This document shows, piece after piece, positions 11,370 through 21,129 of a stretch of DNA of 48,589 nt. The notes beneath the pieces are model-generated. The model had not been told where the DNA came from and ran no database searches. It was given only the letters and a program-made list of their open reading frames with translations. Position 1 is the stretch's first letter; each line of letters starts with the position of its first letter. A program made the translations under genes and the position numbers. This DNA comes from Patescibacteria group bacterium (GTDB lineage: Bacteria > Patescibacteriota > Minisyncoccia > Minisyncoccales > PEYH01), in the NCBI GenBank assembly GCA_018817645.1, contig JAHITK010000006.1, forward strand, positions 1 to 48,589, read 5' to 3'.

Positions 11370-11951
11370 TCAGAAATCGGCATCCCAGACCAATTCGGTA
11401 AAATTCTTCAGGTTTTCAAGCTGGCTCGCGTTGAGGTTTAATGATTTATTCACCGCTTCTGCTATCAAATCCTCTGAAATGGCAATGCTTTCCCCTGTTT
11501 TAATCTCTCTCTCGCCAATGCGATTCTGAATATAGTCCTCGCAAAAAATCTTTTGCTCGGCGCTAAGAGTGACCGAACTTCCGCTCAAATACTCTCTTAA
11601 AGCCCGGCGGGCAAGATGGGTAATGCCGTCTCCGTTTTCAGCAACTTCCTCATATTTCTTTCCAGCAGAGATAATAAGGGAATTATCATTATTACTCTCG
11701 GCGCTGCTGATTTCTTCCGTCTCGCTGTCAGTAATGCCTATGGACAACGCCCCTTCTTTCTCGGCTGCTTGCTCGCTTTCGTTAAAAGCAAGATTGTCTG
11801 TGCCTATACTGGAGAACATATTTATCTTGTATTCTGCCAGTTTTCCCGAAAACTTGAGAAAAACAAAAGTAGAGGCCACTGCTAATACAAATACTGCTAC
11901 CAGGACCATAGTAAAAATTCCCCTCCGATGTTGAAACATAGTAAGCTCCAT
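11370..11951 (-). CDS. Membrane-anchored hypothetical protein
   Basis: N-terminal TM segment, acidic linker, AENGDGITHLARRAL (LysM-like start). Confidence 0.7.
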   Translation of the reverse strand: MELTMFQHRRGIFTMVLVAVFVLAVASTFVFLKFSGKLAEYKINMFSSIGTDNLAFNESEQAAEKEGALSIGITDSETEEISSAESNNDNSLIISAGKKYEEVAENGDGITHLARRALREYLSGSSVTLSAEQKIFCEDYIQNRIGEREIKTGESIAISEDLIAEAVNKSLNLNASQLENLKNFTELVWDADF

Positions 11952-12056
11952 ATTTTTATTATTAAATTATCTTTCTTTACTTTAATCAATTTTAGATTTT
12001 TGTAAAGCCCTTTTGTCCTCTTTGGCGAGTCGGACAATATGCGGACAAAAAGTCAA

Positions 12057-12081
12057 AGTTCCCAACTGGAAGTCGGGAACT
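12057..12081. repeat. Short palindrome with 3-nt loop (REP-like)
   Basis: agttcccaact-gga-agtcgggaact. Confidence 0.55.
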
Positions 12082-12093
12082 ACTATTTAAGGG

Positions 12094-12410
12094 GGCAGAA
12101 AATCTCTGCCAAAGAACTGCTTAGCAAAGAACAATAGAATGGCATGCGGGGAGGGCGGCTTATACGGACTTCCCTCCCCTGACTCTTTTTGAGAATCTTT
12201 GTTGCGAACTTAGCCTGTTGCGTTACTCGAGAAAGCCTACTTAAAGCCCTCGCTCGCAGCCGACTCTCTTGCCTGTGGAGTAGCCACTACTTACCGCTCG
12301 AGGGGGAGAAAGCGACTAGCAGAACTCCCGCCTTTAGTCCGTCAACCACGGAGGTTGGAGGTATGCCGTCCCCCCGAAAAAAGGAGGACTGACACAGTTC
12401 TCTTGCTATT
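12094..12410 (-). ncRNA. Candidate structured ncRNA, paralog A
   Basis: GC-rich intergenic region with its own promoter; several hairpins containing G-U pairs on the minus strand; collinear motifs shared with 13200-13522. Confidence 0.6.
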
Positions 12411-12414
12411 TTCA

Positions 12415-12442
12415 ATTGTACATTCAAATTAACTCCTGTCAA
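12415..12442 (-). promoter_or_regulatory. Sigma-70 promoter TTGACA-N16-TACAAT
   Basis: Minus strand ttgaca ggagttaatttgaatg tacaat; points into ncRNA A. Confidence 0.7.
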
Positions 12443-12484
12443 ATGAATCAACAGATAGGCCCTGTGGAAAACTCCCCCTCAAAA

Positions 12485-12571
12485 ATTACGAGGCCGGGCC
12501 TCGTAGTGAGAATCCATTGATTTGACGCGGTTTCCGCCAAATGCAAAAATTACGAGGCCCGGCCTCGTAAT
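12485..12571. repeat. REP doublet, copy 2
   Basis: Same 23-bp palindromes, period 64, spacer type aatccattgatttgacgcggtttccgcc. Confidence 0.9.
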
Positions 12572-12666
12572 TACCCCTCATAATTTCCTTAAAATTTCAA
12601 TTTATAAAAAGGTCCGCCTCGCGACTCGCGAACGAAGCGGACACCCAGACACAACGCCCAAAAGAA

Positions 12667-13080
12667 CTAATTCCTGACAGAATTTTCAGCCCCATCAATA
12701 TACTCCACATATATTCTCCGCCTCTCTGCCTCTTTGACCAATCTCTCGTCAAACACTCCGTTAGGAGTGTTGACTATTGAGATGCCTCCTTCTCGGTTTA
12801 AGGCCGCGACCCTGGTAACCAACTGGCCTGGCTCCTCAACCCCGTCAAGCCAAGTTATGGTTGGATAGGGGCGCCAGAGGCCACCATCGCCAACACTTAC
12901 CTCTGCCGTCCTAAGCACCCTTAATCTCCCTATGTTGTCACAAACCACTGAAACCCCCATGGGATAGTTGCAAGCGCAGGGAAGATCTACAGTATCACTT
13001 CTATCAAACCGGAGCGTGATGATTTTATCCGACCTTCCTCTCATTTCGTCCGGCATTGAAAAAATTCTCTTTCCTGGCAT
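12667..13080 (-). CDS. Hypothetical protein
   Basis: ATG at 13080 preceded by SD AGGAGG; lies between the two candidate ncRNAs; hairpin downstream at 12613-12641. Confidence 0.6.
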   Translation of the reverse strand: MPGKRIFSMPDEMRGRSDKIITLRFDRSDTVDLPCACNYPMGVSVVCDNIGRLRVLRTAEVSVGDGGLWRPYPTITWLDGVEEPGQLVTRVAALNREGGISIVNTPNGVFDERLVKEAERRRIYVEYIDGAENSVRN

Positions 13081-13199
13081 TTTCCCTCCTTTATTTTTAC
13101 GCGGCAAAGATTTAAATAAATCCTGTTTCTAATTTCATCTTACTCACCTATAATTTAAAGTCAACTTTTTGATAAATATATTGCTCTAAGAAAGAAACA

Positions 13200-13522
13200 A
13201 GTCCTCGGCATTGCCAAGGACTCTTCGGGTTAACGGCGAGCGATAATGAATAACGCTCGAAAGGTGCTGGAAAGAACAAACAAAGAACACTGAAAGTGGT
13301 ATGCGGGAGGGGCGGCTTAATAACGGACCACCTCCCTTGCTCTGAGAAGGAGAGCGCAGTGTTTGTCAGTCACTACGCCGGGCTCTTGTCAACGCGTATT
13401 AGCGTTGAGCCCTCAAAGAGCAACCACCGCTCGCGCTTGCCGCTCAGGTGTAAGGAGGTTACCTTGAACCACCTTAGTCCGCAAACCCGTCTGCCAAGGA
13501 GGATAAACAGAACGGTGTCTTA
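13200..13522 (-). ncRNA. Candidate structured ncRNA, paralog B (includes 3' terminator hairpin 13200-13222)
   Basis: Motifs CGGACTAA, GAGCGGCAAG, GGTCCGTTATTAAGCCGCCCCTCCCGCATACCA and tandem GTTCTTT, collinear with paralog A; ends in agtccttgg-caatg-ccgaggact plus a U-rich tract. Confidence 0.6.
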
Positions 13523-13527
13523 TTTTT

Positions 13528-13555
13528 ATTATGCATCTAATTAAAACTTTGTCAA
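13528..13555 (-). promoter_or_regulatory. Sigma-70 promoter TTGACA-N16-CATAAT
   Basis: Minus strand ttgaca aagttttaattagatg cataat; points into ncRNA B. Confidence 0.7.
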
Positions 13556-13609
13556 GACAAAATCCGCTATTCTTGGCGGATTTAGCGGACCGGTGGAAAA
13601 CTTTCCCCA

Positions 13610-13640
13610 AAAAATTACCCGCCCCAGGCGGGTAATTTTT
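13610..13640. repeat. REP-like palindrome, family 2
   Basis: aaaaattacccgcc-cca-ggcgggtaattttt; relatives at 1659, 22031, 42037 and 45249. Confidence 0.75.
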
Positions 13641-13686
13641 ACTGCAATGATTATTTATAATATAAACCAACTAATTTAAGAACTTA

Positions 13687-16600
13687 TTAGGGACTTAAAA
13701 ACACGGTTCCATCCTTGCCGCTATATGATGCGTTGTCTGAATTCGCTCCGCCAAGTGCTGCTATCACTCCTGTGAATCCGCCCATATTCCCATAAATAGC
13801 AATTCTTCCTCCACCGCCTCCACCGCTGATAGAAGACGCTGATCCTCCATTCGCCGATATGGTCCCCGCTCCCTCAATAGCGCCGGCCGAGAGATAAATG
13901 GTCCCACCACTCCCGGCGCCACTTGCAGGATAACCACTGGTGTGCGGGATACCATTATCGCCATTAGATGAAATTACTCCGTTAATAATAATCTCGCCCG
14001 CAATAGTTATCTTAATTTTCCCACCGCCGTTTCCTCCTTTCCTTGTCTCGGTTGAATTGCCTCCGCCAGAACCGAAATCATCCGGCATTTGCTCGTCTCC
14101 ATACGGCTGACCGAATCCGGATGAAGGATAATTCCTCCCGCCCAAACCGCCATAACTTCCGCCATATGCGATAATGCCGGCTCCCGGCCCTTCTTCGGCA
14201 AGATAGCCAAGTCCTGCAGACGAAATTGCAGAACCGCTGTCTATCGCCAAAGAGTTGCTTTGAATCAAAATATTTGCCGTGATTTCACTATCTTCCAAAG
14301 TAATATTATTCCCTTCCATAGTCACAATCTTTTGATTCTGGCCGACAAGTTGAGATTGACTTAAACCAAACGTATCGCCAATATTTATTGCCGTATCGTC
14401 TGATGCTATTAAAGTCACGCTATCTTGAACATCAAGATTCGCGCAACTCAATTGATTAGGCAAATAAAAATTCGCGCCTCCCTTAATGGCTATATCGCTG
14501 AAAATATAACTATCATTGCTCAAAATTATTGCGCCATTGCGCCCGTTATTATCAATAACCAAATTTCCTGTTTCCCCTTGGCTCATAAAGACGGTTCCCG
14601 GACCTCCGTTAACAACATTGTCCGCGTCCTCTCCGCCGAATGCTTGAATATTCCCAGTAAAATTATTTGCATCATAATAAATCGCGACTCTTCCTCCTCC
14701 GCCAGCCCCAGAACCGGACGAAGATCCTCCTCCATTTGCCCTGATGATGCCTGTTCCTGATAAGACGCTTGTTGTTATATAGACAGACCCGCCGCTCCCA
14801 GCGCCAGTGGAAGCAGGCCCGCCAAAACTATGCAGGAGTCCGTCCTCCCCATTGGCCGAGATAAGGCCGTTATTTAATAATTCTCCTTGCACATCTAAAA
14901 TAATCGCTCCTCCGCCAGCTCCTCCTCGCCGATACGTGCTGAAGCCCGGGACTTCGGGATTCCCTAAGGCGCCTGACCCAAGATCTGCAGGGAATTCTAA
15001 ATCGCCGTAAATAAATAATCTCGGATCCCCTCCATTTCTTCCACCAATGCCCCCATGGCTTGCGCCTGTCTGGCTCGCAAAACTTACGCCCGGTCCCTGA
15101 TCAGACAAATAACCGTTCCCGTCAGCCAGAATCCCTGCGCTATTATCAATAGTGATGTTGTCCGCTATTATCTTAACTCCCTTAAAGGGTTCTAAAGAAA
15201 TATCAGAGTTAACAAATAAATTAATTCCTTCAAGAATCACCAAATCTTTAAAAACATATTCGCCTGCGCTAAGAGCTATGTCTTGAGAAATCTCTGTAAG
15301 GGGGTCGTATTCATCTATTATCCCATCGTTGTCCAAATCAGAATACAAAGAAAAATTTCTTTGCTTCGGAGAGGGTTCCTGCTCTTCAAAATCGTTACTA
15401 TTATCGTTTGTGTCTATATATCGCAAATAACCATCTCTGTCCGGGGACAATTTCCGTGCCAAACTTTTATCACTTGAACTCGTTGCTGCCTGTGTCTCAA
15501 AAACAAGCGGTTCGCCCCAACCAAGAGCGTCAATCTTGCAATCTATCGCTGCCTGCGTGGTGGTTGCTTGGCCTGGATTGCAAGAAAAAACCGCGGCCGC
15601 TCCTGCCTCGTCGCTTAAATGAGTTTGATACGGCTTCCAATCCGATTCTTCTTCTGAATAATCGCCCATTCCTACAAGAAAATATTCCTTTGCTTGAATT
15701 ATGGAGGTGCTCGTGGGAAATTCTTTGTTTAAAAATGGATTATTCCAATCACGGCCCGCTGAAAAATAACTGAAATAAAACCCGGATAAGGAAAACTCCT
15801 GTTCAAGGGGGTTATAGAGCTCAACAAATTCTTCACTGCCAGCAGACCGCACTTCAGAAATTATTAAATCTTGGGCAAAAACATTTTCCTCAAGTGATTC
15901 TGTTAATGTCAAAATAATTGTCACTAAGCCCGACTGATCGCCATCGGCATCCTGCGCCCGAATATTGATAGTGTTTTGACCGGACACCAGGGTGACCGTA
16001 ATCTGCCACTCATTATTTTCGTCAACCAAGATTTCTTGACTGTCCAAAATAATAATATCGCCTGACCGGGCTGTACCCTCAATAAGTATCTGCACTCCTC
16101 CGGCCTCACTGTCAACATCATCGCTCGGACTAAATGAATCCCCGTCGTTGGGAGAAATAATTTCCGGCAAAGGGGGTCCGCTTAAATTAACATAACTAAA
16201 AGTATCTCCTTCCTCTGCCTCGGACCATGCCTCAATATTGCCTGCCAAATCAACGGCTCGCGACCTAAAATAATAAGCATGACTGTCAGCTCCGCTAAAA
16301 TCCGCGCTTGTCCCTTGGACAGCGATTTGCCAGTCCTGCCAAGAACCTGCCAGGCCATCCTTAAATTGGATATCATAATCGGCAATGCCCGACTCATCAC
16401 TGCCCGACCAAGTCACGATGAAATTAGCCGAGGATTGGGAGACGTCTAACTCCAATACTTGAGAAAGAGGGGCTAAAGTATCTAATATAATTGAAGATGA
16501 GTTGCCGAGAGGACTGATGTTCCCAGCCATATCTTTGCTCCAGACATAAACAGTTTTCGAACCATCAGCCTCTGATAAAGCAAATATCTCTGGTTTTTCG

Positions 16601-19527
16601 TTTTGCCAATCAGGATCATCTACGCTGGGTTTTCCAGGGTCTTCTGACAAAAACCATTCTGATCCCTCTTCGGTGCTAGAGGCCGAGACAGTCACTCCTA
16701 CAATTCTTTGATTGGTGTAAAATTCTGAATATGTGTCTATGTCAAACAAAGAAATATTCGGGCTTTCAATTGCAGTGTCAATAGCCCAAGCGTATTCAGC
16801 AGGAGTGAGATCGGTATTTAAAAATAAATCTGTTGCTTTGGATAAAAATTTATGTTGACCGTTATATAAACCCGGATACACTTTTGGAGACTCGCAGGAT
16901 TCCCAATCTTGACTATCTAATTTACATTCAAAACTACAATTTTCCTCATTCGCATGGAAGATAAAAATAGCTTGGGTCTGATTGGTTAAAAGGGGTGGGC
17001 CGGAAGTGATCTCGGTTTCAGGGGAGGTGTCGTCAATTTCTTTCAGAATATCCTCCAAAACCGGCTCTATAAAACTCTTGTTTTTTGATTTAGACGTAGG
17101 CTCCTGAATCTCAAAATCCTCACTATTGTTATCAGTGTCTTGATAGCCCCCCGAACCAATCGCCTTTCTTCCTAAGGATTGATAGAAGATAGAATGGGGA
17201 TAAGGCGTTCTTGCGCCAGTAAAACCAAGCCCGTCAAGCCATTCCCCAACCATATCTCTGCTTTTCGGATTATCGCCAAAGGCCTGGCCCTCAACAAACG
17301 GACTGTTATGACCTGTGCCCCAAGCTACAGCGTCAATGATGTTTTGACCCTGGTCAAGCAAGGCAACACTTTCGTCCTGGATGAGATAAGAAGTACTGAA
17401 AGTATCGGCCCCGACTGAAGAGGGATAATTCTCATCTTTGGAACCGGCCCATAAGAAATAACCTTCCCCAGGGATAGCACTTCCTCCGGGGAAAATCCGG
17501 ATTGAGGACTCTGCCCCATTTTGATTCCTCTTTCTTAAACGCCAACCACTAATATCTACGCTACTGCTTGAAGGGTTATAGAGTTCAATAAAGTCCTGAC
17601 CTTTTGTTTCTCCCTCAATCTGAACCTCGCTAATTAGAATCTTTGGAGAAGGGATTGATGAATGTCCGCCACTGCCGGAACCTCCACTTCCTCCGCTGCT
17701 TCCGCTTGCGCTGCCAGCTCCAGTATCCCCGATGGCGCCAGAATTTAAAAAGCTGCCTGTTTGCTCTTGCGCAAACAATCCTATCTCCCCCTTAGAATTC
17801 GTGGGCGAAGGCGACTCGTTGAGCGAAAAATCCGCGGCATTATTATTAGTGTCAATATGATTAGAACGCTCTAAACTCTTATTGGTTTCAAGTCCTTTTT
17901 GTAATATCTTTCCCTGCGCCTCTACGGCCGATTGAGGCGCGGACTGCTCCGGTTTTCCCCAACTCACTTTATCTAAAATATTTCCCTCATTGTCTGAAAC
18001 AATAACCCCGCTCACGCTGCTTAATTGAGCGCTGAAAACCGCGTCCCCTTGAACTTTTTTATTATCAATTATTAATTCTCCGCCGATTAAAAGAAAATAC
18101 CCTTTGGCAGGGATGATATTTTTATTCCAAGTAATTTTCTTTTTTGTTATATTATTGCTTGAATTGACCAACTGAAGTTGAAAATTGGCGTCGCTTAATT
18201 CAATCGGCGCATTGTTAGGGTTATAAATTTCAATAAATTCATTTTGGGCTTTATTAAGACCGGCGCAAACCTCGTTTATCAAAATATTCTGCCCGGTTTG
18301 TTGGTCTTGTCCGGGATCAAATTCTGCTGTTCCCGAAGATATCCCTCCTCCGACCTGTAAAAGATTTATTCTCTCTCCCAACGCATCTAATTGTTCCTGC
18401 AAGGACTCTATTTTTTCCATAAAAGCCAACAAATCATCCTCTGTAACTATGTCTTGCGCCTGTTCTTCCAATGCATTGTATTCGGCTTGACTAAGAAATG
18501 ATTTAAATGCGCGAAATTGTTCTAAGATATTGGCAATAAATTGGCCTAAGGCGCTGTCCGCGGACATGTCCAATGTCCCATCTTGATTATTTTCTATATC
18601 AGGAACATCTACCACTGAAGCTCCCGAGAAAAAATCGCCTATTCTTCCGAAAAAATTCTTTATTGTATCCCCGAGTTTTTCAAAAAATCCTTTTTCGTGA
18701 AAATCAAAATAAGGGACATTGTCCGGAAATTCAAGTTGAATATTGGGCTGAGATTTCCAAGAATAACTGTGGGTAATTTCACTCTGCCAGTAGCCAGCGC
18801 GCTCTCTATCCATTTCTCCGCGTATTGTCAAAACAAAAGGGGCGATCTTTTTGCCCTGCGCATAATCAGTAGAGTAATTCCAGCCAGTTCCCAATAAAGA
18901 TCCCCAGGAGCCTCGCGACTCCGGCGCTCCTATTGGCTCGGAAGAAAAAATTTTGATTACTGCCTCGCCTTGATTATCTGTTTCTGGATAATAAAAAATA
19001 ATATATTGAAACTGCTGTTTTTCTTTTTTGCCCTGAAAATTATTATAAGAAAAATCCAAATTCCCGGTGGCTACCTTGACCTCGTTCTCTTTTAACCACT
19101 GGCCAAGATAATTGACCGCTTGTTCAACGGTCAATTTTTCAATTTCTTTTATAACCTCTCCAATACTCTGGGTAAAAAATACTTTGCCAACCTTATATCC
19201 TAATTTGGCAATCTCTATTCCTACTTCTTTCGGACCCTCTATTAATAAATAATCTCTTATATTGTCCCTAACTGACTTTCGGACAATCATAGAGGCCGCT
19301 TCCTTTTCTGCACTGGCTACTGAAACCACTGATTCTATCCAAGTATCGGTTAATACTTGTGGAATGGTCCGTAAAATATTCTTTGCGTCTGTATTATTAA
19401 TATATATAAATTTATCTAAATCTTCGACGCTAAAATCATTATTACTTACCGCACTAACAGAGCCGACTCCTAATGTAAAAAGCCGTAACAGAATTAGTAA
19501 AAACAATAAAAAGATGGGCCTTCTCAT
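13687..19527 (-). CDS. Giant secreted surface protein: three lamin-tail domains, Ig/FN3-like domains, C-terminal Gly-rich repeats
   Basis: Signal peptide; three ILI(N/S)EV...(E/D)F(I/V)E(I/L)YNP...DT(N/D)NNxxDF blocks (LTD); DTSPETEITSGP and DESGIADYDIQ Ig-like modules; repeated GGGAI..ISANG..GAGSGG. Confidence 0.85.
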   Translation of the reverse strand: MRRPIFLLFLLILLRLFTLGVGSVSAVSNNDFSVEDLDKFIYINNTDAKNILRTIPQVLTDTWIESVVSVASAEKEAASMIVRKSVRDNIRDYLLIEGPKEVGIEIAKLGYKVGKVFFTQSIGEVIKEIEKLTVEQAVNYLGQWLKENEVKVATGNLDFSYNNFQGKKEKQQFQYIIFYYPETDNQGEAVIKIFSSEPIGAPESRGSWGSLLGTGWNYSTDYAQGKKIAPFVLTIRGEMDRERAGYWQSEITHSYSWKSQPNIQLEFPDNVPYFDFHEKGFFEKLGDTIKNFFGRIGDFFSGASVVDVPDIENNQDGTLDMSADSALGQFIANILEQFRAFKSFLSQAEYNALEEQAQDIVTEDDLLAFMEKIESLQEQLDALGERINLLQVGGGISSGTAEFDPGQDQQTGQNILINEVCAGLNKAQNEFIEIYNPNNAPIELSDANFQLQLVNSSNNITKKKITWNKNIIPAKGYFLLIGGELIIDNKKVQGDAVFSAQLSSVSGVIVSDNEGNILDKVSWGKPEQSAPQSAVEAQGKILQKGLETNKSLERSNHIDTNNNAADFSLNESPSPTNSKGEIGLFAQEQTGSFLNSGAIGDTGAGSASGSSGGSGGSGSGGHSSIPSPKILISEVQIEGETKGQDFIELYNPSSSSVDISGWRLRKRNQNGAESSIRIFPGGSAIPGEGYFLWAGSKDENYPSSVGADTFSTSYLIQDESVALLDQGQNIIDAVAWGTGHNSPFVEGQAFGDNPKSRDMVGEWLDGLGFTGARTPYPHSIFYQSLGRKAIGSGGYQDTDNNSEDFEIQEPTSKSKNKSFIEPVLEDILKEIDDTSPETEITSGPPLLTNQTQAIFIFHANEENCSFECKLDSQDWESCESPKVYPGLYNGQHKFLSKATDLFLNTDLTPAEYAWAIDTAIESPNISLFDIDTYSEFYTNQRIVGVTVSASSTEEGSEWFLSEDPGKPSVDDPDWQNEKPEIFALSEADGSKTVYVWSKDMAGNISPLGNSSSIILDTLAPLSQVLELDVSQSSANFIVTWSGSDESGIADYDIQFKDGLAGSWQDWQIAVQGTSADFSGADSHAYYFRSRAVDLAGNIEAWSEAEEGDTFSYVNLSGPPLPEIISPNDGDSFSPSDDVDSEAGGVQILIEGTARSGDIIILDSQEILVDENNEWQITVTLVSGQNTINIRAQDADGDQSGLVTIILTLTESLEENVFAQDLIISEVRSAGSEEFVELYNPLEQEFSLSGFYFSYFSAGRDWNNPFLNKEFPTSTSIIQAKEYFLVGMGDYSEEESDWKPYQTHLSDEAGAAAVFSCNPGQATTTQAAIDCKIDALGWGEPLVFETQAATSSSDKSLARKLSPDRDGYLRYIDTNDNSNDFEEQEPSPKQRNFSLYSDLDNDGIIDEYDPLTEISQDIALSAGEYVFKDLVILEGINLFVNSDISLEPFKGVKIIADNITIDNSAGILADGNGYLSDQGPGVSFASQTGASHGGIGGRNGGDPRLFIYGDLEFPADLGSGALGNPEVPGFSTYRRGGAGGGAIILDVQGELLNNGLISANGEDGLLHSFGGPASTGAGSGGSVYITTSVLSGTGIIRANGGGSSSGSGAGGGGRVAIYYDANNFTGNIQAFGGEDADNVVNGGPGTVFMSQGETGNLVIDNNGRNGAIILSNDSYIFSDIAIKGGANFYLPNQLSCANLDVQDSVTLIASDDTAINIGDTFGLSQSQLVGQNQKIVTMEGNNITLEDSEITANILIQSNSLAIDSGSAISSAGLGYLAEEGPGAGIIAYGGSYGGLGGRNYPSSGFGQPYGDEQMPDDFGSGGGNSTETRKGGNGGGKIKITIAGEIIINGVISSNGDNGIPHTSGYPASGAGSGGTIYLSAGAIEGAGTISANGGSASSISGGGGGGRIAIYGNMGGFTGVIAALGGANSDNASYSGKDGTVFLSP

Positions 19528-20421: not shown

Positions 20422-21129
20422 TCATTCTAAAAAATCTGTTTTATCTATTCCTTTAGAATAAATGCTTGATTTGGATAATATCCAAGAGTTTATTTCGTTC
20501 TTAATTTCTTGTTTTCCGTTAAATAACTTCGCAAAAAAATCTTTTTTAATCAATGAAGGAAAATTATCTTTCCCTAAATAATCCTGATAACTGGACCAGC
20601 GATATTCGCTCCCTAAAAATTGAATGGCCTTCTGGGGATTAAGAACTTTCCATTCTTTCCACTGCGGCTCAACGAGTTCTATCGGATTTGTGTTTATATA
20701 AACAAAATTATTTTTAAGCTGCGTTTCTGTCTGGATAAGTTTAGCTCTAAACCGTCCCTCAAAAAGAGATCCTGTTCTTTGATATTTTTTATTAAAAAAA
20801 TACGCATATCCGCCGAGTTTCCTTGTATATTTCGTAATGCCATTTTCTGTGATTTGCCGAATAAGAAGATGAAAATGGTTGCCCATTAAAGCAAATGCGT
20901 GAATTTCGACCAAGGGATTCTTGGGCTGATAAGACATCACCAGCTCTTTTTGTCGCTTCCAAAAAGCGCGGGATTGCCACGGCGAAGGCGCTGTATCGTT
21001 AAAAACTAACAAACTATTAATAAAACGAAGGCGATCTTCATCGTCTAAGAATATTTTACGCTTATCATTTCCGCGCTCTATAATATGGTAGAATTCACCA
21101 TTGATTAATTCGGTTTTTCTTTTTGGCAC
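20422..21129 (-). mobile_element. REP-associated tyrosine transposase (RAYT, Y1/IS200-like HUH nuclease)
   Basis: YHIIERGN..KIF, HUH motif LMGNHFHLL, RTGSLFEGRF, YINTNP and YRWSSY; REP doublets on both sides. Confidence 0.9.

Follow-up and report, generated by a model that had tools for sequence, protein, structure and literature searches.

Two paralogous genes of a probable undescribed structured RNA in one lineage of Patescibacteria

The stretch of DNA analysed here (the window; 48,589 nucleotides, contig JAHITK010000006.1 of NCBI GenBank assembly GCA_018817645.1, from a Patescibacteria group bacterium) carries two adjacent minus-strand units between its protein genes, which we call copy A and copy B. 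These are probably two paralogous genes of one undescribed, lineage-restricted structured non-coding RNA (ncRNA) with a trans-acting fold. That a real structured non-coding RNA family is present here is very likely. A mode of action by binding of a protein or of a small ligand, as a scaffold or sequestering RNA, is suggested only tentatively, and we regard the RNA as accessory rather than essential. The window corresponds to contig C16 of the genome G000 (665,325 bases in 28 contigs, completeness score 100%), and the sequencing runs in which it was found are groundwater metagenomes. Four distinct sequences of the RNA are known, namely copy A, copy B, a copy in the genome G004, a member of the same genus (found again on L027, L034 and L035), and a copy called M1 from the metagenome contigs L030 and L033.

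Results

Two independently promoted transcription units

Each of the two units, which lie side by side, has a near-consensus sigma-70 promoter and an intrinsic terminator on the minus strand. The promoter of copy A (TTGACA-16-TACAAT, 12442-12415) and that of copy B (TTGACA-16-CATAAT, 13555-13528) both agree with the consensus at 11 of 12 positions, and they are among the 59 near-consensus promoters of the 665-kb genome. The intrinsic terminator of copy A is an 11-pair hairpin (12081-12057, minus strand), while in copy B an 11-pair stem is followed by a U-run (13223-13199, minus strand). Thus the two units are independently promoted, as had been claimed in a preliminary description of this DNA, and each of them has its own terminator. 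The transcript of copy A is predicted to extend from 12408 to 12050 on the minus strand, as judged from the promoter and terminator, the stability of the fold and the orthologues at the same place in G004 and M1; that of copy B is predicted from its promoter and terminator to extend from 13521 to 13190 on the same strand. The predicted length is about 330-360 nt per unit.

The region 11800-13800 contained 7 promoter-like sites, compared with 2.2 +/- 1.1 in shuffled sequences, and 8 terminator-like sites, compared with 2.1 +/- 1.6. Promoter and terminator were present at all four homologues, with the same promoter type in each case. The minimum free energy of copy A was below that of all 100 dinucleotide shuffles (z -3.88), and the same was observed for copy B (100 of 100, z -4.63). 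Four groundwater DNA runs showed zero variants within copy A or copy B.

Paralogy of the two copies

When copy A was compared with its own genome by BLAST, only the self match was obtained and the next matches had E values of at least 0.7. Since plain BLAST misses copy B, the similarity of the two copies lies in motifs and architecture only. A covariance model (R2) was built from copy A and its two orthologues, copy B being left out. A search of the 48.6-kb window with this model (E<=1) returned two places, copy A and copy B, the latter over its full length with 36.4 bits and an E value of about 8e-8 (rough calibration). The model that had been built without copy B recovered it as the sole other match, and the paralogy of the two copies, already proposed on the basis of their motifs, is real.

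All motifs of the preliminary description were located on the minus strand. These were CGGACUAA (copy A 12341-12334, copy B 13481-13474), GAGCGG(U/C)AAG (12299-12290 and 13445-13436), the GGGAGG/CCUCCC stem with the loop GUCCGU..UAAGCCG, which is called P4 below (12179-12148 and 13336-13305), GCAU(G/A)CCA (12147-12140 and 13304-13297) and two GUUCUUU boxes in each copy (12132-12126 and 12117-12111 in copy A; 13288 and 13277 in copy B). The anti-Shine-Dalgarno (anti-SD)-like motif near the 5' end was also found, with one correction: the copy A counterpart of UACCUCCUU in the other copies is probably at 12362-12357 (minus strand), and UCCUCCUU at 12388-12383 is a strand of a 5' hairpin. A single ordered pattern of 20 segments fitted all four sequences, which shows the collinear architecture.

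A conserved reading frame was not found in the copies; peptide similarities turned up in two frames of the sense strand and two of the antisense strand, and copy B carries a 2-base indel within the conserved loop. A coding RNA was ruled out on these two grounds, in agreement with the earlier remark that no open reading frame (ORF) is kept inside either copy.

The conserved core

The RNAs begin with a 5' part of 39-67 nt that folds into one or two hairpins; the core that follows measures 186-217 nt, and a tail of 82-102 nt holds hairpin P6 and the terminator. The core, delimited by the 20-segment pattern (copy A 12342-12126, copy B 13482-13282; here and below on the minus strand), is composed of the 5' strand of the pairing PK1, hairpin P2, GAGC, hairpin P3, a variable domain, hairpin P4, GCAU, RCCAY and the first GUUCUUU box. 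P2 (12332-12302 in copy A, 13473-13447 in copy B) is variable in length and has a GG...CC fold in all four sequences; its pair types differ among the copies, as judged by eye on the 20-segment pattern. P3 (GGUA...UACU; 12295-12279 and 13441-13419) has 4 pairs in each of the four, and the last five bases of its loop in copy A are GUGGC (12287-12283). The variable domain (12278-12180 and 13418-13337), which measures 82-99 bases depending on the sequence, folds into hairpins and defies alignment. P4 has 7 pairs and a conserved 16-base loop, AAGUCCGU-A-UAAGCCG. The 3' part of copy A (12132-12094) holds the two GUUCUUU boxes and P6 (12110-12094).

Three further pairings connect these elements. In PK1 the strand ACGGACU pairs with the P4 loop (12342-12336 with 12170-12164 in copy A, 13482-13476 with 13329-13323 in copy B). 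In PK3 the P3 loop pairs with the RCCAY strand contained in GCAURCCA (12143-12139 in copy A, 13300-13296 in copy B). Finally, GAGC (12299-12296 in copy A) is able to pair with GUUC of the first box.

The most conserved bases of the RNA are those of the core and not the ACCUCC motifs discussed below, and 50 of 62 core columns are invariant across the four sequences. The invariant unpaired and junction bases UAAGCCGC and GCAU adjoin freely varying peripheral helices and the 82-99-nt insert. Such invariant junctions beside varying helices fit an RNA in which a tertiary fold is the functional unit, and the pattern of conservation differs from that of an antisense RNA relying on a single seed.

Support for the helices and pseudoknots

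Since MAFFT alone misaligned copy B, the helices were counted instead on a model-based alignment of the four sequences, A7, with a proposed model of five helices and 27 pairs. In this model 98.1% of the 107 cells pair, compared with 47-55% after a shift of the partners by 1-3 columns, and two-sided changes occur at 6 pairs, compared with 0-1 after the shift. The observed value was reached by none of 500 shuffles. RNAalifold, applied to a different alignment, independently gave P4, PK3 and GAGC:GUUC.

Two-sided changes were seen at 3 of the 7 pairs of P4 and at one pair of P3 (position 3: U-A, C-G, U-G). PK3 (RUGGY/RCCAY) forms 5 pairs in all four sequences, two of which change on both sides, one as C-G/U-A in a 2:2 split and the other as A-U, G-C and G-U. 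PK3 is the strongest single item of the structure, as both of its end pairs covary around three invariant pairs. GAGC:GUUC forms in all four sequences and is invariant. On the whole, the covariation over four sequences, in the hairpins P2, P3 and P4 and in PK3, is suggestive, and as physical structures the pseudoknots are predicted from these patterns.

The preliminary description proposed a double pseudoknot in which the P4 loop would pair with two upstream motifs. Its first pairing, ACGGACU/AGUCCGU, is PK1; it forms in all four sequences (7, 7, 7 and 6 pairs), and by pair 5 are invariant, 1 has a one-sided change, 1 is broken in M1 and none has a two-sided change, so that it shows zero covariation. 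The second pairing, GCGGU/GCCGC, is possible in all four, but it shows a one-sided change only and its bases are shared with P3 and GAGC:GUUC; P3 is better supported than this competing pairing. PK3 is a different second pseudoknot, absent from that description, with compensatory changes at both ends. Two other helices were considered and rejected. The 7-pair GAGCGGU/AUUGUUC helix given by RNAalifold has 2 pairs broken in copy B, and an AARGRG/UUCUUU helix pairs in most cells but has one-sided changes only and overlaps with GAGC:GUUC.

Search for known RNA families

A covariance-model scan of the whole window with Rfam 15 gave no match for any of the 4227 models at the gathering scores, which bears out the view that the copies belong to no Rfam family. 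At E values up to 10 the region, and copy A, the G004 copy and M1 taken separately, gave unrelated weak matches, none of them recurring. The part of the literature reached by our search contained nothing on an RNA like copies A and B.

Known stable RNAs were considered individually. The sole match of the RNase P RNA model (RF00010) at E<=1 in G000 was at C10:21582-21906 (121.8 bits), with none on C16 (14 candidates scored), and transfer-messenger RNA (RF00023) was located at C1:67674-68052, none of the 14 matches listed being on C16. The 6S RNA model (RF00013) had no match in G000, and the folds of the copies are multi-branched with 5' and 3' ends that pair inconsistently. The two models of signal recognition particle (SRP) RNA, RF00169 and RF01854, also had no match in G000; RF00169 matched none of six genomes (G000-G004 and G006), RF01854 having been applied to G000 alone. 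Since SRP RNA was not detected in five relatives, the blank is a family trait and not a clue to copies A and B. In addition, the RNA is missing from the congener G001, which argues against an essential role. The undetected 6S (G000) and SRP RNAs are either very divergent or within assembly gaps. A guide or scaffold RNA of a mobile element was rejected as well: among the 14 neighbouring ORFs, Pfam revealed no IscB/TnpB, IS110 recombinase or reverse transcriptase, and no complementarity or match of the RNA to its own genome exceeded 14 nt.

Distribution

The distribution searches covered samples and exact patterns, and absence refers to the genomes searched. BLAST found the RNA in 2 of 41 genomes (G000 and G004), and the 5' motif pattern in 2 of 401 genomes of the order. 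Model R1 found it in 2 of 26 genomes when the whole family was searched. In the order sample (E<=0.1) 2 of 151 genomes matched, the second of which (G043) was spurious, the match being the start of a coding region. In the class sample there were also 2 of 151; here the second (G521) was a 65-base partial match with only UGCGGACUAAGG in common and is not a homologue. In the phylum sample the one match among 151 genomes was G000 itself. The exact loop-tail pattern occurred in 4 stretches of the genome_contigs collection, of which 1 was true (L027), and in 8 stretches of metagenome contigs, of which 4 were true; in the other three and four every further motif was missing. Two motif scans of viral contigs had at least 118 matches each; among the 236 loci listed, none had the remaining motifs in place, and no blastn match was found in phage and plasmid collections. 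The covariance-model search of genomes of the Candidate Phyla Radiation (CPR), which had been suggested earlier, gave in these samples nothing true beyond one genus-level lineage, to which M1 also belongs.

A 249-base contig (run X2, record 16) matches 13284-13320, the P4-tail stretch of copy B, with 3 differences, and may represent a further variant of the RNA from the same habitat.

Gene neighbourhood

The gene order around copy A is the same in G000, G004 and M1: a giant lamin-tail surface protein, the RNA, a 193-aa gene and a gene of a DeoR-type helix-turn-helix protein. In G000 copy B and a 137-aa gene are additionally placed between the giant gene and copy A. In G001 the giant gene is followed by a dehydrogenase-like gene, the 137-aa gene and the 193-aa gene, the product of the last being 85% identical.

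The 137-aa gene (13080-12667, minus strand) has its own promoter-like site (13164-13137) and belongs to no Pfam family. It was proposed to be a partner of the RNAs. This could not be upheld: G001 has the gene without either RNA, while G004 and M1 have the RNA without the adjacent gene, and in G004 the gene was not found anywhere. The 137-aa and 193-aa genes are unrelated and neither protein has a Pfam match.

The giant gene of the window (13687-19527, minus strand) encodes a 1946-aa protein with three lamin-tail domains and a glycine-rich C-terminal repeat region, and a gene of this type lies directly upstream of the RNA in G000, in M1 and in L035, which carries the G004-type copy. On the other side of copy A, an inverted repeat, UUGUCCGCAUUGUCC ... 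GGACAAAAGG, is found in 12050-11990 (minus strand), immediately ahead of the 193-aa gene's promoter-like site (12006-11979, minus strand, downstream of the copy A terminator). It is kept in G000, G004 and M1 and in the RNA-less G001, and is probably an operator for a local regulator. At the place of copy B, G001 (L024:1290-1420) has a short tandem repeat, with AUUCUUUC twice, followed by a terminator-like hairpin; promoter and RNA core are both missing there, and the repeat may be a remnant or unrelated.

Discussion

Proposed architecture and mode of action

Copies A and B are best explained as two genes of one structured RNA. Each gene would be transcribed from its own strong sigma-70-type promoter and stopped at its own intrinsic terminator. 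The RNA would consist of a variable 5' hairpin region, a conserved core and two 3' hairpins. In the core P2, P3, P4 and the freely varying insert would be tied together by two loop-to-strand pairings, one between the P4 loop GUCCGU and the upstream ACGGAC (PK1), the other between the P3 loop RUGGY and RCCAY just after P4 (PK3), and the core is probably closed by pairing of GAGC with the GUUC in the first box. The RNA may then act in trans as a stable fold that binds a protein or a small ligand.

Several observations weigh against this interpretation. Expression and the ends of the transcripts are predicted from promoter and terminator signals. The four distinct sequences come from one genus-level lineage and give modest comparative support. 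In a control, 14 column pairs among 12 variable columns of the conserved blocks looked compensatory by chance association, and the covariation is therefore statistically weak; moreover, A7 was fitted to P3 and P4, so that the counts lean towards both of these helices, and PK1 and GAGC:GUUC do not covary at all. Of the 5 congeneric genomes searched with R1, BLAST and patterns, 2 contained the RNA. The syntenic region of G001 has neither RNA, and a filter-free model search there yielded nothing above 5 bits; since this congener does without the RNA at the syntenic site, the RNA is dispensable. Finally, no partner protein or ligand is suggested by the 14 neighbouring ORFs in the Pfam analysis.

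ACCUCC motifs and base pairing with mRNAs

ACCUCC occurs 2, 1, 2 and 2 times in the four RNAs, compared with 0.174 per kb per strand in the genome. Copy A has two adjacent motifs (12362-12350), and in copy B they are at 13503-13498 and 13459-13454. The excess is notable since the 16S rRNA of this genome, with the 3' end ...GAUCAC-ACAAUCUUU, has no CCUCC anti-SD tail. An alternative explanation is a base-pairing small RNA (sRNA), in which ACCUCC(UU), identical to the canonical anti-SD core, would pair with purine-rich GGAGG-type sites near translation starts and block translation or alter it, while the core would serve for stability only. We consider this unlikely, although it is the alternative that survives best. 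It would account for the excess of the motif and for the extra copies at non-homologous places (in copy B the P2 loop, in G004 and M1 the variable domain). Some of the motifs are predicted to stay mostly unpaired (0.98 and 0.88), and a minority of genes, the 137-aa gene among them, have a strong GGAGG before the start. The predicted accessibility, however, is inconsistent and spans 0.0-0.98, and part of the conserved motif is tied up as a strand of a small hairpin in G004, M1 and copy A. GGAGG is found upstream of about 4% of 492 long ORFs, and the words enriched there, about 6-fold, are AT-rich ones such as ATTAA; before ATG-ORFs the excess of GGAGG is slight (4.2%, the control 5-mers giving 1.8-3.3%). 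The counts of AAGGAGGUG are similar whether or not a genome has the RNA; G000 has 13, as many as the reversed control. The absence of complementarity longer than 14 nt and the peak of conservation in the core also speak against such an sRNA.

A bolder variant, in which the RNA would supply ACCUCCUU in trans to the minority of mRNAs with a perfect AAGGAGGUG site, is not favoured, because neither the 16S tail nor the number of sites sets genomes with the RNA apart from those lacking it: the tail of G002 is the same and that of G006, from another genus of the family, is similarly devoid of an anti-SD, and both genomes lack the RNA. On these grounds the idea of an anti-SD acting in trans was rejected. 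That some of the CPR have lost the anti-SD has already been published (PMC9297842).

The 16S gene itself lies outside the window. Its end, ...GUAGAUCAC-ACAAUCUUUAUC, is at about 9489-9430 of G000:C22 (minus strand; also L277, L278 and L280). After the conserved ..GTACTCACA the gene is interrupted by an insertion of about 1.1 kb with a homing-endonuclease-like ORF (identified by eye), which is probably a group I intron.

A catalytic RNA or ligand sensor

It is improbable that the copies are self-cleaving or otherwise catalytic RNAs or free-standing ligand sensors, with the junction bases as active site or pocket within the double pseudoknot. The invariant junction and loop bases, the covarying helices and the freely varying insert agree with such a role, as does the architecture of two pseudoknots. 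The P4 loop also resembles one strand of RNase P P4 and has 8 bases complementary to the other strand, but by our estimate chance alone would give such a complementarity roughly once in ten trials. In addition, no ribozyme or riboswitch of Rfam matched at E values up to 10, and a known conserved cleavage-site context is lacking. We give a similarly low probability to the core being a new functional fold, whether as a ribozyme or as a free-standing RNA that interacts with a ligand or with RNase P, evolved in this CPR lineage with its 665-kb genome.

A selfish cassette or a cis-acting leader

Still less probable is a decaying or selfish cassette without function that has spread locally together with the flanking terminator and box repeats. 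Presence and absence of the RNA vary inside one genus, multicopy hairpins resembling repetitive extragenic palindromic (REP) elements and a repeated GTTWTCCACA box are found directly upstream, and a weak match to an IS200-like Y1 transposase lies about 7 kb away. On the other hand, paralogues that BLAST does not recognize keep 50 of 62 core columns invariant and all helices paired, and this requires purifying selection. There are, moreover, two copies per genome only, and terminal repeats are absent.

The upstream repeats deserve a description of their own. The REP-like GC-rich hairpin CGAGGCCGGGCCUCG is followed by a U-run and then by the box AAAGTTWTCCACAG, which resembles a DnaA box. In the window the pair is found at 12449-12575 and 13600-13650, and there are 25 sites genome-wide, many of them just upstream of promoters, both RNA promoters included. 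In the four groundwater DNA runs the read depth over 12449-12570 was about 10 times that of the flanks, and 12449-12575 is thus a multicopy repeat. A cluster of the boxes at about 44220-44320 of C27 may mark the replication origin. The transposase match concerns a 235-aa ORF (20422-21129, minus strand; E 1.6e-4, below the Pfam cut-off), which may be a REP-associated tyrosine transposase tied to the repeated hairpins.

About as improbable is a cis-acting leader (riboswitch- or attenuator-like) that would control the 137-aa gene (copy B) and the 193-aa gene (copy A) by read-through of the terminator: each copy does lie upstream of a same-strand gene and ends in a terminator, and the position of copy A before the 193-aa gene is kept in three lineages, but after each terminator a further promoter-like site precedes the downstream gene (13164-13137 and 12006-11979), G001, which lacks the RNA, has retained the two genes together with the signals upstream of them, and the two genes are unrelated and without a Pfam family.

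Significance

The genomes of the CPR are very small, and few non-coding RNAs have been described in them. A duplicated, strongly promoted and knotted RNA under selection in a genome of 665 kb points to a function worth its cost, and should the RNA turn out to catalyse a reaction or to bind a ligand, a new RNA fold would be added to those known. The narrow range limits the surprise value. Copies A and B constitute a well-delimited candidate family, with the models R1 and R2 and a structure proposal.

Comparison with known systems

Among the systems that we take to be suitable for comparison, C-rich seed sRNAs of Gram-positive bacteria (RsaE/RoxS type) likewise contain several short C/U-rich motifs complementary to Shine-Dalgarno-like sequences in one RNA. 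Copies A and B, in contrast, are three times longer, have a conserved knotted core, carry the motifs inconsistently in loops and have no family match. With 6S RNA, which can occur as two paralogues, they share the organization as a free-standing gene of a stable RNA that has a promoter and a terminator to itself. They differ from it in being multi-hairpin and pseudoknotted, without a long rod with a central bubble, and in being missing from congeners.

The likeness to RNase P RNA is confined to the P4 region. The P4 loop, AAGUCCG-UAU-AAGCCG, resembles the 5' strand of P4 in the RNase P RNA of this genome (..GGAAAGUCCGAA..) and has 8 bases complementary to the 3' strand (..CGGCUUAU..), a number that is not significant; in copies A and B this motif would likewise form a long-range pseudoknot. 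The predicted pairing of the UGG loop with RCCA recalls the recognition of the 3' RCCA end of tRNA by RNase P. The order of the strands is reversed, however, RCCA is internal to copies A and B, and no other conserved region of RNase P was recognized in them.

Close parallels are also the orphan structured RNAs of bacteria known from comparative genomics, such as the raiA motif, ROOL, GOLLD, OLE and HEARO. Like these, copies A and B have an independent fold of a few hundred nucleotides in which conserved junctions are combined with pseudoknots and covarying helices; they are distributed sporadically, and their neighbours are uninformative on function. The copies match none of these families in Rfam and have a far narrower range (one genus, four sequences); they are smaller than ROOL, GOLLD and OLE, and they are without the adjacent IscB-type gene of HEARO.

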